Positions 24,394 to 43,699 are shown, numbered from the stretch's first letter. The stretch is 64,000 bases of DNA from Escherichia coli (GCF_041886205.1 NZ_CP169031.1); one strand, 5' to 3'. Notes: generated by a model from the sequence alone, not told the origin. Made by a program: numbers and translations.

Positions 24394-24525
24394 GGTAGAT
24401 ATTTTGTTTCTCGCGAATCACATTTTTTCACTTCAGTACCTGTGTGCTATACTCCTTCTTGATTGATTGGATGCGGAATACAAACCCGCTCTTTTGTGCA
24501 GCCTGGCTCCTTGCCAGGCTTTTTT

Positions 24526-24873
24526 TTATTTCATCATGGAAGCTGTTAACGCTTTGGACCTTGCTGAACTGATTGAAAGGGCATTGTTTACCTTACCCAG
24601 GAGTTTGCCAAATTCCCCCATCACTCTAGTAAGCCCGCGCCGCGCTTCCTCCTCCGTTGCATTCATCACAAAATGTTCAGCACTCCGCATGCTTTTAACG
24701 GGGAACGCAACAGATATCGAGTCGATATCAGGCATCCTATCGCTCAACTTTACGGTGACAATGACAGATGGCGACAGAATATTAGTGCTTACAGACAGCA
24801 CTACATATTTTCCGTCGATGTTGAAATCCTTTCTCATATGCCACCATAAATACCAAAGAATTAGAGCAATCAT
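24526..24873 (-). CDS. cra: Cra-like protein (start uncertain)
   Basis: ORF directly downstream of cre; an alternative start at 24837 gives 103 aa. Confidence 0.5.
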   Translation of the reverse strand: MIALILWYLWWHMRKDFNIDGKYVVLSVSTNILSPSVIVTVKLSDRMPDIDSISVAFPVKSMRSAEHFVMNATEEEARRGLTRVMGEFGKLLGKVNNALSISSARSKALTASMMK

Positions 24874-24887
24874 TTACGCGTTAATGG

Positions 24888-25919
24888 CTAATTGCCATCT
24901 TCCAGCAGGCGCACCATTGCCCCTGTTTCACTATCCAGGTTACGGATATAGTTCATGACAATATTTACATTGGTCCAGCCACCAGCTTGCATGATCTCCG
25001 GTATTGAAACTCCAGCGCGGGCCATATCTCGCGCTGCTCCGACACGGGCACTGTGTCCAGACCAGGCCAGGTATCTCTGACCAGAGTCATCCTTAGCGCC
25101 GTAAATCAATCGATGAGTTGCTTCAAAAATCCCTTCCAGGGCGCGAGTTGATAGCTGGCTGGTGGCAGATGGCGCGGCAACACCATTTTTTCTGACCCGG
25201 CAAAACAGGTAGTTATTCGGATCATCAGCTACACCAGAGACAGAAATCCATCGCTCGACCAGTTTAGTTACCCCCAGGCTAAGTGCCTTCTCTACACCTG
25301 CGGTGCTAACCAGCGTTTTCGTTCTGCCAATATGGATTAACATTCTCCCACCGTCAGTACGTGAGATATCTTTAACCCTGATCCTGGCAATTTCTGCTAT
25401 ACGTAGCAGGGTATTATAAGCAATCCCAAGAAATGCCAGATTACGTATATCCTGGCAGCGATCGCTATTTTCCATGAGTGAACGAACCTGGTCGAAATCA
25501 GTGCGTTCGAACGCCAATGCCTGTTTTGCACGTTCACCGGCATCAACGTTTTCTTTTCGAATCCGCCGCATGACCAGTGAAACAGCATTGCTGTCACTTG
25601 GTCGTGGCAGCCCGGACCGACGATGAAGCATGTTTAGCTGGCCCAAATGTTGCTGGATAGTTTTTACTGCCAGACCGCGCGCCTGAAGATATAGAAGATA
25701 ATCGCGAACATCTTCAGGTTCTGCGGGAAACCATTTCCGGTTATTCAACTTGCACCATGCCGCCCACGACCGGCAAACGGACAGAAGCATTTTCCAGGTA
25801 TGCTCAGAAAACGCCTGGCGATCCCTGAACATGTCCATCAGGTTCTTGCGAACCTCATCACTCGTTGCATCGACCGGTAATGCAGGCAAATTTTGGTGTA
25901 CGGTCAGTAAATTGGACAT
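24888..25919 (-). CDS. cre: Cre tyrosine recombinase
   Basis: 343-aa protein MSNLLTVHQNLPALPVDATSDEVRKNLMDMFRDRQAFSEHTWKMLLSVCRSW... recognised as Cre; the cognate loxP lies 419 bp upstream. Confidence 0.98.
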   Translation of the reverse strand: MSNLLTVHQNLPALPVDATSDEVRKNLMDMFRDRQAFSEHTWKMLLSVCRSWAAWCKLNNRKWFPAEPEDVRDYLLYLQARGLAVKTIQQHLGQLNMLHRRSGLPRPSDSNAVSLVMRRIRKENVDAGERAKQALAFERTDFDQVRSLMENSDRCQDIRNLAFLGIAYNTLLRIAEIARIRVKDISRTDGGRMLIHIGRTKTLVSTAGVEKALSLGVTKLVERWISVSGVADDPNNYLFCRVRKNGVAAPSATSQLSTRALEGIFEATHRLIYGAKDDSGQRYLAWSGHSARVGAARDMARAGVSIPEIMQAGGWTNVNIVMNYIRNLDSETGAMVRLLEDGN

Positions 25920-26337
25920 TTAACACTCAGATAATGGTTTTAAGTAAAGTGTACAGGATCGGCTCTGCCTTTACCTGTTTATGGTTCTCGTCATAGAAAC
26001 GCCAGCGACCGCGCGTGCGTTCTATTTTCTCTTCACCGCGCGATAATGACAGTTGGCAACTATCACGATCAAACCCTTTTGCCCGCCAGTAACCACGGTT
26101 TTTCTCAAGCTCAAGATGAGTGGACACTTTAGCAGCTGAATATCCCATTTTTCACCTCTGATTGATTGGTGGTGCTAAGTGCGCTACGCGAAATCTGGAG
26201 CACTAACACTGCCAACTTTTCACAGATTTTACGTAGCGCAACCTTGATCAAATGATCAAGTGATCACTATTTGACCTGATAAGGTATTGAACTGTATGGA
26301 TTTACAGGTAAATTGATCATGTTCAATAACCCTTAAG

Positions 26338-26371
26338 ATAACTTCGTATAATGTATGCTATACGAAGTTAT
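26338..26371. other. loxP site
   Basis: Exact ATAACTTCGTATA-ATGTATGC-TATACGAAGTTAT. Confidence 0.98.
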
Positions 26372-26414
26372 TAGGTCTGAAGAGGAGTTTACGTCCAGCT
26401 GCGCATAAAAATCA

Positions 26415-26431
26415 ATAATTATTAGAGCAAT
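26415..26431. promoter_or_regulatory. C1 operator (15/17), immC region
   Basis: ataattattagagcaat. Confidence 0.65.
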
Positions 26432-41400: not shown

Positions 41401-41592
41401 GAAGAGGCGGCGAAACGCTATATTCGCACGTCTTTAAAACGCGAATACGCCACCGAAAATGGCACAGAATTAAACGAAACATTACCAAAACTTAGTCCGT
41501 TGAATCCGCAATATAAAACGAAAAAACAGGCAGTTTTCCAGAAAATCGTCTCGTTTATTGAGAAGTTTAAAGGCGTAGGCGGAAAAATATAG
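38476..41592 (+). CDS. hsdR: Type I restriction-modification system restriction subunit HsdR (Type IC)
   Basis: 1038 aa; SF2 helicase motifs ([14 protein letters not shown]) and N-terminal nuclease region; gene order M-S-R is typical of the IC family. Confidence 0.95.
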
Positions 41593-41786
41593 CCCAATTC
41601 GTGTTTTTCTTGCGGGTTCTTAATTAAACCCGCAAGAGCTCGTGGGGTTCCAAATGGCTAATATACTCCCCTTACCCATGCGCGACGATGCCGCCAAAAG
41701 TGATAGAGAACAGCCAGAAATAGATCGCGGCCATAATGATTTTGAATGCCGTGTTCATATTTTCAGCTCCTGTGATTGATTGGATA

Positions 41787-41817
41787 CATGCCGCGCCTTG
41801 CGGCATGTTTTTATTTT
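41787..41817 (+). terminator. rho-independent terminator downstream of hsdR
   Basis: Hairpin catgccgc/gcggcatg followed by TTTTTATTTT. Confidence 0.6.
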
Positions 41818-41840
41818 CACTTTCTCTGTTTTAAAAATCA

Positions 41841-41857
41841 AGATTTATTAGAGTAAT
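41841..41857. promoter_or_regulatory. C1 operator (15/17)
   Basis: agatttattagagtaat at the junction of the pap-like gene and the RM island. Confidence 0.6.
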
Positions 41858-42363
41858 TATTGCTGATGGAGAAGCGCGTTTTCATACTCCCTGACCATTA
41901 ACGTAAGTACGCCGTGACTCCTGAAAACACGCGCCACTTCAATCTTATCTTCCAGCGCGAACGCGATTTTACTTAGACCAATTTTCTTAAGGAGATCAAT
42001 CTTTGCTGGGCCGTCATTTCTATCATCGGTAGCAGGACGCATAGATAGCAAAGGCTCAGCCCCGTTTGTTACGTGCTTACGCAACCAGGCTCGTGTTTTA
42101 TCCCTGGCTATCTCACAGCGCCCGGTTACAAACCAGAGGGTGTAAATGCCGGACAACTGGCGCACCATATCAATAACTGGAGTGATGGGAGTATCGGTGT
42201 CACAGGCGAGATTAAACTCGTTCCAGTCCTTTGTTAATGCACCTTTACCTGGTGGCGGAAGCAAATGCAGTCTGTCTTCAGTTGCCTCTGATATTGTTCC
42301 ATCAATATCGACTATGACGATATACGGACGTTCCTGGTGTGCGTGTTTATTGAAAATACTCAA
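41857..42363 (-). CDS. HAD-family phosphatase (P1 pap-like)
   Basis: HAD motif I IVIVDIDGTI; 168 aa. Confidence 0.65.
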   Translation of the reverse strand: MSIFNKHAHQERPYIVIVDIDGTISEATEDRLHLLPPPGKGALTKDWNEFNLACDTDTPITPVIDMVRQLSGIYTLWFVTGRCEIARDKTRAWLRKHVTNGAEPLLSMRPATDDRNDGPAKIDLLKKIGLSKIAFALEDKIEVARVFRSHGVLTLMVREYENALLHQQ

Positions 42364-42436
42364 ATGCCCTCCTCATTGGACGAAAAAAATGCTGGTGGGA
42401 CGCACTCCACCAGCATTAAAAGTGACACTGTAACTA

Positions 42437-43699
42437 TCAGCGAACGTAAATAGTGCCGCCGTTCTCTTTTTCCCATGCATCGCTACGTGCATAGCAAACA
42501 TCGAGAAGTCTTCTTGCCGCTGTTTCCTCTAAACCCAATTCGACAACCAACTGCTCATGACGGCGGGTAACCACATCAAACAGGGTATGCAGCCCTTTAG
42601 TTGCCAGATCATCAATGAATTCCGGTTCGAACGGCAGCTCTGCATCTGCCAACATAACCTCTTGCGCCCACTCGACACGGCGGACCAGTTCCGGGCGGCG
42701 GCTTTCCATCTCTTTACAGATCAATTCATGGAAGAACTCTACCCAACCTTCCGGCTGGAACTCGCGGAAAATGGCCAACGGCTGGAAGTTTGGCATCAAC
42801 CATTCGTTGATCCGGATATCAATGGCATAGCCCATGTCGCAGCAGAACTGATAAGCAAAGTCCAGCTTAGAAACGATATAAGGACGCTCGTTATTGAACT
42901 CTTTAGGCGATGAGATCCCATAAGCCAGGAGGCGCGGGAAGAAGGAGATTTGCCCTAACGTCGGATGAAGTTTGCTTGCAGGGAAACGGCGCTCAGTAAT
43001 GCCATACATTTCCTTCTTGAGCGTCGCAAATTTGGCATTCTCATTAACCAGCGCGGTAACCTCTGCTTTTTTATTAGCAAATGCCACGCGCGCCTCGCTT
43101 GCATCTTTAATAGTTTTTTTGAGCTGTTGGTTAAGGTCGGCGACCTGCTTACGCAGTTCCTGTCGCTCGCTTTTAGCTTTGTTATAGCGTTTCTCAAGGT
43201 TAAAAGGATCAAGTTTCATGATCTCTTTATATTGAGATTTTAGCGTTGAAATCTGTGAGTTCCGCAGTTCAACCATCGCGGTCATTTCATTGAGTTTTGT
43301 TTCCAGCTCAATGCTTATACGTTCGGCATTATCAGCACGCTGGTTGGCGTCATGCGTCGCATCGTCGATCGCGTCCTGTTGCTGGCGTTTCAAATGTTCA
43401 ATTTGCAGCTGAAGCTCTTCAATTTCTTTACCCTTCAGACCAAGATCCAACTGCATATTTTCAGCTGCATCTACCAGGGAGTTATGGCTATCAGCTTCTG
43501 CGTTATAAACATCAATAAGCTGTGCGTGAAGCATCTCCGCTGACTGAACCGCATTATCAAAAAAACGCGCTGTGAGGTCATCACAACTAACGCGGCGTTG
43601 CGCGGCCCGGATGTTCTGGATAATGGCCGGGATACCGGCATTCAGGACGTCAGGGATAGATACATTTTCGATTGATTGGTTTTGTGCTGAAGTGCTCAT
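42437..43699 (-). CDS. coiled-coil protein, unknown function (pmg-type late gene)
   Basis: 420 aa with a long heptad-rich central region. Confidence 0.6.
   Translation of the reverse strand: MSTSAQNQSIENVSIPDVLNAGIPAIIQNIRAAQRRVSCDDLTARFFDNAVQSAEMLHAQLIDVYNAEADSHNSLVDAAENMQLDLGLKGKEIEELQLQIEHLKRQQQDAIDDATHDANQRADNAERISIELETKLNEMTAMVELRNSQISTLKSQYKEIMKLDPFNLEKRYNKAKSERQELRKQVADLNQQLKKTIKDASEARVAFANKKAEVTALVNENAKFATLKKEMYGITERRFPASKLHPTLGQISFFPRLLAYGISSPKEFNNERPYIVSKLDFAYQFCCDMGYAIDIRINEWLMPNFQPLAIFREFQPEGWVEFFHELICKEMESRRPELVRRVEWAQEVMLADAELPFEPEFIDDLATKGLHTLFDVVTRRHEQLVVELGLEETAARRLLDVCYARSDAWEKENGGTIYVR

Follow-up and report, generated by a model that had tools for sequence, protein, structure and literature searches.

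A predicted trans-acting small RNA of P1-like phage-plasmids and its putative target sites near translation starts

The 64-kb stretch of Escherichia coli DNA analyzed here (NZ_CP169031.1; hereafter, the window) is a P1-like phage-plasmid in which an exact search finds the 10-mer GATTGATTGG on the + strand at positions 24461, 26160, 41774 and 43670. We propose, with an estimated probability of about 0.68, that the copy at 24461 is the seed of an unannotated, trans-acting small RNA (sRNA) of ~67 nt and that the other three + strand copies are its target sites. The sRNA would be transcribed from the + strand, and all the other conserved copies of the motif are present as its reverse complement in - strand mRNAs, so that the geometry fits pairing. 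The conserved seed is predicted to be single-stranded and is complementary to several unlinked mRNAs near their translation starts, with three predicted targets in the window, five in the Cronobacter phage JK004 and four in the Salmonella phage-plasmid pCFSAN058588, the two diverged relatives that were examined in full. To our knowledge, c4 is the only recognized regulatory RNA of P1; the RNA predicted here would most likely be a second base-pairing regulator of the P1-like phages.

The putative gene lies in the c8-ref intergenic region (for the coordinates of all features, see Table 1). The promoter scan detects an extended -10 element, TGcTATACT (24445–24453), with the TG at 24445–24446 and the hexamer TATACT at 24448–24453, preceded across a spacer of 17 nt by a weak -35 element, TTTTCA (24425–24430); the motif starts 7 nt downstream of the -10. 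The predicted RNA begins with the seed GAUUGAUUGG (24461–24470), i.e., with G at +1 followed by ATTGATTGG, and continues with stem-loop 1, in which GCGG (24473–24476) pairs with CCGC (24486–24489), a U-rich linker (24490–24499), a terminator stem (24500–24520) and a tail of seven to eight U residues (24521–24527). As far as sequence prediction goes, this locus is an independent transcription unit that has its own promoter and Rho-independent terminator and would yield a non-coding RNA. The possibility that the RNA encodes a peptide was considered and rejected, given that the ATG and short open reading frame (ORF) at 24471 are not conserved in the other sequence types of the unit (types B–D below). 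In P1 (AF234172), the predicted sRNA corresponds to the complement of about 1828–1894, where nothing is annotated, and full-text literature searches, including those with both sequences as strings, found no paper on the motif or the sRNA. A search of the window against Rfam yielded only tRNAs at the gathering threshold, the sub-threshold matches being generic and terminator-driven.

Pattern search combined with the analysis of relatives resulted in four sequence types of the sRNA unit, namely type A (P1), type B (JK004 and loci L133 and L300), type C (pCFSAN058588 and L120) and type D (L149). All four keep the TGnTATACT element, the 7-nt spacing, seed bases 1–9/10, the GUGCAGCC block and the + strand terminator; the promoter spacer and the -35 element vary. 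The sequences of stem-loop 1 are unrelated among the four types, yet all of them fold, with compensatory substitutions, and the overall folds are alike, with the first 7–8 nt free and z-scores between -3.0 and -3.6. Across 18 distinct sRNA variants, seed bases 1–9 are unchanged and are unpaired in the folds, and in a structure alignment of these variants 93.6% of the cells are paired, compared with 26–52% when the partners are slid. Both sides of the pair changed in 5 of the 13 pairs, comprising four of the five pairs of stem-loop 1 and one pair of the terminator. The G-U pairs fit the + strand RNA only and turn into A-C mismatches if the other strand is read. The secondary structure of the sRNA is conserved, and this conservation is backed by covariation. 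Within the P1 type, substitutions concentrate in the promoter spacer and in the loops.

The covariance model scores 95.4 bits at the 24461 locus and produces one strong match per related genome. The search for additional lineages returned two real and eight random matches in genome contigs and a single match, of type B, in metagenomes; a seed-free terminator pattern run against viral contigs returned only the four known contigs, and searches of PLSDB with types C and D yielded five Salmonella plasmids. The sRNA locus is carried by 699 plasmids in PLSDB. The close relatives, sampled as 81 IMG/VR P1-type loci in which the cra copy of the motif is invariant and the 24461 copy nearly so, are too similar to one another to be informative for covariation. 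D6 was tried as an outgroup and set aside: the 21 kb examined contain no exact copy of the motif, no sRNA gene and no match to the covariance model, so that D6 affords no covariation test. A candidate second copy of the sRNA at 41774–41814 (+), where the seed is followed by a terminator, was also rejected, being a weak match to the model (17.6 bits, E = 0.44) with no predicted promoter. The + strand hairpin with a T run at 41786–41808 would terminate the putative hsdR gene and doubles as the 5' hairpin of the - strand leader discussed below.

Two further observations concern the sRNA locus itself. In types B–D, the -10 of the sRNA promoter lies between the two arms of an inverted repeat, GCGAATGA..TCATTCGC, GCGGATG..CATCCG and GCGAAC..GTTCGC (L084, 21650–21675; L205, 27428–27453; L149, 931–956; sense strand, directly 3' of the motif). 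These arms co-vary between the lineages, the P1 type having only 4 bp, and the repeat might be either a hairpin in the sense-strand RNA or a palindromic operator for the sRNA promoter. In two P1-type loci, L080 and one other, the G of the extended -10 TG is replaced by A and the seed has the change G10 to A as well; these may be decaying copies of the sRNA gene.

The predicted target sites in the window all read CCAAUCAAUC in the mRNA and are predicted to be unpaired overall (probabilities of 0.69–0.91). In the leader of the cra-cre operon, the - strand motif CCAATCAATC ends 1 nt before the Shine-Dalgarno (SD) sequence of cra, AGAGGTG (26153–26159), and is followed after 11 nt by the cra ATG (26146–26148). 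This site, which is ahead of the first gene of the operon, has a predicted unpaired probability of 0.69, is invariant in 82 of 82 P1-type loci and is also present in type D. The same leader contains a long-range inverted repeat, GCGCUACG ... CGUAGCGC (26232–26239 and 26181–26188, -), which is kept in all three lineages, is flanked by GATC (Dam) sites and is predicted to fold into a stem immediately 5' of the motif. The second site is located 3 nt after a 5' hairpin (41787–41807), 2 nt before the SD sequence AGGAG (41767–41771) and 15 nt before the ATG of a 28-aa ORF, downstream of the C1 operator Op88/OpmgT; it is complementary to the P1-type RNA over 15 bp and has an unpaired probability of 0.91. 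This ORF, which is not annotated in P1 (AF234172), encodes a conserved small hydrophobic protein (MNTAFKIIMAAIYFW...) of 53 aa in JK004 and 46 aa in pCFSAN058588. The third site is internal to pmgS. The operators Oref, Op88 and Op86 are located near the target genes. An earlier interpretation of this DNA that was made from the sequence alone (hereafter, the sequence-only reading) had placed the motif directly before the SD sequences of the 28-aa ORF and of a 73-aa ORF, which is cra, and these distances bear it out. Its description of the copies as near cra/ref and the pmg gene starts is loose: the 43670 copy falls within pmgS codons 7–10, and the 24461 copy is intergenic between c8 and ref and, read on the - strand, is followed by an SD-like AAGGAG with no start codon.

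The motif recurs at orthologous places in relatives in which its flanks have diverged beyond megablast detection. The amino acid identity between JK004 and the window is 79% for Cre, 70% for PmgS, 64% for Ref, 55% for Cra and 49% for C8; for the two relatives taken together, it is given as about 80% for Cre, 69% for PmgS and 49% for C8. In the 93.8-kb genome of JK004, six of the six exact copies are in the mRNA sense and at orthologous places, namely, at the ref ATG, in the intergenic region downstream of c8 (the sRNA gene), in the leaders of cra-cre, of the small ORF and of a 52-aa hydrophobic ORF, and in pmgS codons 7–10. The ref copy abuts the ATG, with no SD sequence, and the small-ORF copy follows an Op88-like C1 operator. 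Likewise, all four exact copies in pCFSAN058588 are in the mRNA sense at orthologous places; the small-ORF site in this genome is UCAAUCAAUC, with pairing retained via G-U. When the orthologous leaders of the three lineages are aligned, the motif is an island of identity between diverged flanks, and in pmgS the string C-CAA-UCA-AUC is identical in the three lineages, including the third codon positions, whereas the neighboring codons and amino acids differ. By the yardstick that the sequence-only reading itself had named, positional conservation in related genomes, the motif holds up in relatives with diverged flanks. Both JK004 and pCFSAN058588 also encode a second small membrane ORF (50–52 aa, MKDF...), which has no homolog in the window and is preceded by a hairpin-motif-SD leader that closely resembles that of the first.

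In JK004, pCFSAN058588 and type D, the base that adjoins the motif changes in concert with the RNA. Position 11 of the sRNA is A in P1, C in JK004, and U in pCFSAN058588 and in type D (L149). In JK004, the base just 5' of the motif is G in five of five targets, matching C11 of the RNA, and in pmgS this G entails a non-synonymous change, AAC to AGC (Asn to Ser); in pCFSAN058588, the corresponding base is A in four of four targets, and the same is the case for the one available type D target. In pmgS, a second block of predicted pairing involves the 5' arm of stem-loop 1 and codons 2–5, with a different sequence in each lineage: GUAGCG with CGCUAC in JK004 (p = 0.001) and UUUGCA-GGAGA with UCUCC-UGCAAA in pCFSAN058588 (p = 0.002). 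Extended complementarity is also detected at cra of JK004 (p = 0.008), all these p-values for extended complementarity being derived by shuffling the RNA tail. In both relatives, cognate RNA-target pairs outscore the non-cognate ones. In the P1 type, complementarity extends beyond the seed only at the small-ORF site, with its 15 bp.

The case rests on position and on conservation in diverged genomes because the copy count is not significant. The sequence-only reading located the four + strand copies correctly and overlooked a fifth copy, on the - strand at 52623, which we judge to be outside the system and which has no counterpart at that place or on that strand in JK004 or pCFSAN058588. The excess over chance that it had claimed (an expectation of ~0.1) is real for a fixed word, with a mean of 0.25 copies in shuffles vs. 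5 observed in the window, but the 10-mer was picked after inspection, so that this statistic is post hoc. In Markov simulations, the number of different 10-mers with at least five copies was 0.55 (order 1), 2.45 (order 3) and 6.15 (order 5), and the real window contains 21, mostly C1 operators, Chi and RepA iterons; some 10-mer with at least five copies is therefore expected in 64 kb. Copy number was accordingly dropped as proof after these simulations and the listing of all repeated 10-mers. Copies with one mismatch (11726, 30704 and 54934) were rejected as well, being at gene ends, inside genes or on the opposite strand and not conserved. The rest of P1 contains no further copy of the motif. 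As for the other highly repeated 10-mers, most contain Chi (GCTGGTGG), e.g., at 42388–42417 and 48387–48537, and one pair makes up the two arms of a hairpin downstream of pmgS that resembles a terminator; the remaining ones are C1 operators (ATTGCTCTAAT, 11 sites) and five iterons spaced by 21 bp at 63842–63936.

From these features, we infer that the sRNA is produced, pairs with its targets in vivo, represses them and employs a chaperone, and we propose the following putative mechanism. The sRNA would be transcribed on the + strand from the extended -10 in the c8-ref intergenic region and would end at the Rho-independent terminator. It would then pair, over 10 to 15 bp or more, with accessible single-stranded sites that adjoin the SD sequence (cra and the small ORFs), overlie the ATG (ref in JK004) or fall in early codons (pmgS). 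The duplex could hinder 30S binding and/or trigger mRNA decay; given that it abuts or overlaps the 30S binding region, translation would most likely be lowered. With targets that are either under C1 control or weakly expressed, the simplest logic is that the sRNA would curb leaky expression in the lysogen, and it would represent a post-transcriptional layer on top of C1 repression. The U-rich linker and the U7–8 tail of the P1-type sRNA hint at a chaperone, for which Hfq and, in some lineages, a ProQ/FinO protein of the phage are the candidates. A 176-aa protein of the ProQ/FinO family is encoded in JK004 (JK004_111, 81956–82486) and in pCFSAN058588 (84602–85132), the two being 75% identical to each other, and may be a phage-borne chaperone for the sRNA in those lineages; neither the window nor the stretch of P1 examined contains a homolog. 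A preprint that also mentions the c4 antisense RNA reports that pmgS and pap are over-induced in an hfq mutant host, which is weakly in line with the sRNA model.

Several observations weigh against the interpretation of the 24461 copy as the seed of a trans-acting sRNA. The start site was placed by promoter geometry alone, and transcription of the locus is itself a prediction. In the P1 type, pairing at cra and pmgS is limited to the 10-nt seed (-17 to -22 kcal/mol), with A11 of the RNA mismatched at both sites and extended complementarity not significant, and the pmgS site (+21 to +30) falls at the margin of the classical five-codon window or beyond it. The three seed variants detected in P1-type loci (G10 to A twice and G10 to T once) are uncompensated at cra. 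The leaders of the small ORF and of the MKDF ORF look paralogous, with similar hairpins, and so are not fully independent sites, and with only four independent lineages the covariation counts are small. Finally, the covariation at position 11 could also come from motif copies, the one at 24461 included, that are read by a co-evolving protein. In its general form, this alternative holds that all copies are a cis-acting RNA site for a phage or host protein, such as a repressor or endoribonuclease akin to RegA/RegB of T4, the antisense promoter and terminator being incidental. It would fit the uniform mRNA orientation, the positions by the SD sequence, the ATG or the early coding sequence and the shift, by lineage and at all sites together, of the base 5' of the motif. 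We nevertheless consider it unlikely because it leaves unexplained the conserved TGnTATACT at 7 nt and the + strand terminator, the way in which stem-loop 1 varies, with compensatory substitutions and with G-U pairs that suit one strand only, and the complementarity of stem-loop 1 to pmgS codons 2–5, which differs from lineage to lineage; furthermore, no candidate protein was identified.

The proposal of the sequence-only reading itself, a translational or transcriptional signal, appears quite improbable if it is taken to mean a self-sufficient cis element, such as an enhancer or a standby site, that stimulates initiation at the adjacent SD sequence. C/A-rich translational enhancers are known in E. 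coli, and the motif does have three or four copies per genome that precede start codons by 0–16 nt within C/A-rich sequence devoid of structure, several of them after a 5' hairpin. However, its complementarity to 16S rRNA (E. coli rrsB) is not beyond chance, the best duplex of -8.2 kcal/mol being equaled or bettered by 79% of shuffled motifs, which argues against a signal read by the ribosome. Moreover, the pmgS copy is inside an ORF, the 24461 copy precedes no ORF in P1 and coincides with the predicted first base of the unit on the antisense strand, the ref copy of JK004 lacks an SD sequence, and the distance from promoters is not constant, the motif being found at roughly +25 and +55 relative to the annotated start sites. 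What survives is a family-specific, post-transcriptional signal near translation starts, as opposed to a self-sufficient cis signal for the ribosome or RNA polymerase; an enhancer could still be accommodated in the sRNA model as the element that the RNA masks. Recognition of the motif as duplex DNA, with a DNA-binding protein using it as an operator, would be in keeping with its short length, its conservation and its occurrence in intergenic regulatory regions close to C1-controlled promoters but is very unlikely, given that the site is asymmetric and strictly oriented relative to transcription, its distance from promoters varies and one copy is in a coding region with frozen synonymous positions; to judge from reading the sequence, no IHF, DnaA or C1 consensus is evident either. 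Chance recurrence combined with hitch-hiking on conserved sequence draws on the expectation of a 10-mer with this many copies, on the random appearance of the dbn copy and the one-mismatch copies and on the uninformative close relatives of P1. The census of JK004 and pCFSAN058588 effectively refutes it: in these genomes the motif, fixed beforehand, recurs in six of six and four of four cases on one strand and at orthologous places, at a protein identity of 49–80% and with diverged flanks.

P1 is among the founding models of phage genetics, and Cre-lox comes from it. If the sRNA interpretation is correct, P1 possesses a conserved second sRNA with a regulon consisting of the cra-cre operon, the first ORF of the C1-controlled pmgT operon and pmgS, to which some lineages would add ref and another small membrane peptide. 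Such a regulon would constitute a post-transcriptional layer in lysogeny control and plasmid maintenance, would explain the hairpin-motif-SD module that is common to several early or C1-controlled leaders and would be directly testable with the four natural seed/target variants. The end of the c8 ORF adjoins the predicted sRNA terminator; we take c8 to be a poorly defined lysogeny-establishment locus, and it can be speculated that the sRNA bears on it. Given that P1-like phage-plasmids often carry resistance genes in Enterobacteriaceae, a regulator of their maintenance would be of practical interest.

The names cre, cra, c8, ref, pap and pmgS were assigned from the P1 reference annotation (AF234172), and the region 24000–27000 of the window is 96.6–99.3% identical to P1, P7 and SJ46. 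A three-gene block on the + strand (35587–41592; 520, 402 and 1038 aa) is missing from P1, relative to which it is inserted between the small ORF and pmgT. On the basis of the gene sizes and of notes in the P1 annotation on what lies downstream of the hsd loci of EcoDXXI and R124, we take this block to be a putative type I hsdM-S-R system. Three tRNA genes on the - strand (55421–55493, 57133–57205 and 57211–57283; Rfam, gathering threshold) are consistent with the known tRNA genes of P1. The ref leader has, immediately before the ATG, a G+C-rich hairpin with a T8 run behind it (24292–24309, -) that is terminator- or attenuator-like, and an equivalent hairpin precedes ref in JK004 and pCFSAN058588.

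Table 1. Coordinates of the predicted sRNA unit, the putative target sites and the genes discussed in the text.
Feature	Position	Strand	Basis or remark
Predicted sRNA promoter	24425–24453	+	Promoter scan
Predicted ~67-nt sRNA	24461–24527	+	Promoter scan and terminator scan
Putative target site 1, cra-cre operon leader	26160–26169	-	CCAAUCAAUC; 82/82 P1-type loci, three-lineage alignment
Putative target site 2, small hydrophobic ORF leader	41774–41783	-	CCAAUCAAUC; orthologous sites, 15-bp complementarity
Putative target site 3, pmgS coding region	43670–43679	-	CCAAUCAAUC; nt +21 to +30, codons 7–10 (xxC CAA UCA AUC)
Fifth copy of GATTGATTGG	52623–52632	-	Inside dbn coding region, opposite sense
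ref	Within ORF 23718–24383	-	P1 annotation
c8	24526–24873	-	P1 annotation
cre	24888–25919	-	P1 annotation
cra	25927–26148	-	P1 annotation; 73-aa ORF of the sequence-only reading
Small hydrophobic 28-aa ORF	41672–41758	-	
pap	41857–42363	-	P1 annotation
pmgS	42437–43699	-	P1 annotation

In its overall organization, the predicted sRNA resembles the enterobacterial Hfq-dependent, trans-acting sRNAs with a 5' seed, such as RybB, MicC, OmrA/OmrB and the prophage-encoded DicF: these are ~70 nt long, with the seed at the 5' terminus, then a stem-loop and a U-rich linker and, at the end, a U-tailed terminator, they bind several targets through ~10 nt at or near the ribosome-binding site or in early codons, and the seed is their best conserved part. 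Unlike these, the predicted sRNA is encoded by a plasmid-prophage and appears to be aimed at the phage's own genes, and its linker is U-rich in the P1 type only.

Another likeness is to OmrA of E. coli K-12 (b4444; L302, 303–390, -), which carries AUUGAUUGG, i.e., nine of the ten seed bases, in its 5' targeting domain (CCCAGAGGUAUUGAUUGGUGAG); OmrB carries AUUGAUAGG. Over 11 nt, OmrA is complementary to the CACCAAUCAAU of the P1 cra leader; the phage sRNA and OmrA also have their parts in a similar order and share a terminator of the AGCCUG...CAGG-U8 style. In contrast to OmrA, the phage sRNA lacks the CCCAGAGGU 5' end and has an extended -10 promoter, which is not a known OmpR-dependent promoter. 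The OmrA-B family (Rfam RF00079) gives no match at the gathering threshold, nor at E <=10 on stretches of 201 nt and 79 nt, and its conserved 5' end, CCCAGAGGUAUUGAU(U/A)GGUGA, is not found in the phage sRNA, in which the first 9 nt are missing and only AUUGAUUGG is in common. We estimate the chance of a 9-mer match to some known sRNA at roughly 0.01–0.1, which is not very improbable, and the shared seed could reflect cross-talk, mimicry or coincidence. It is doubtful that the phage sRNA is a seed mimic of OmrA; if it is, cre, pmgS, ref and the small membrane-peptide genes would share an OmrA-type landing site and be co-controlled by envelope-stress signaling of the host (EnvZ-OmpR, via OmrA) and by the phage RNA, and conversely the phage RNA could reach part of the OmrA regulon of the host.

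The trans-encoded type I antitoxins (IstR-1/tisB and OhsC/shoB) are comparable in that two of the predicted targets encode small hydrophobic peptides (28–53 aa, and 50–52 aa in JK004 and pCFSAN058588) and the sRNA would bind upstream of the SD sequence beside a 5' structure, as a standby-site blocker does. Unlike these systems, the sRNA gene is 11–19 kb away from the small ORFs rather than adjacent to them (the distance being 17 kb for the 28-aa ORF of the window and 11 and 17 kb for the two small ORFs of pCFSAN058588), and the putative targets also include genes that are not toxins (cra-cre, pmgS and ref). With GcvB, the predicted sRNA shares a G/U-rich seed that pairs with a C/A-rich, unstructured element upstream of the SD sequence in several mRNAs; the two differ in that there is no sequence relationship between them and the seed of GcvB is internal (R1) whereas that of the phage sRNA is 5'-terminal.

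The c4 antisense RNA of P1 and P7 (immI) belongs to the lysogeny control layer and represses icd-ant by means of short complementary blocks at the ribosome-binding region of that mRNA. The RNA predicted here is similar to c4 in being encoded by phage P1 and in acting, as we propose, via short complementarity at the ribosome-binding region of phage mRNAs. In contrast to c4, which is processed out of the very operon transcript under its control and acts on a single target operon, the predicted sRNA has its own promoter and terminator at the c8-ref locus and at least three unlinked putative targets.

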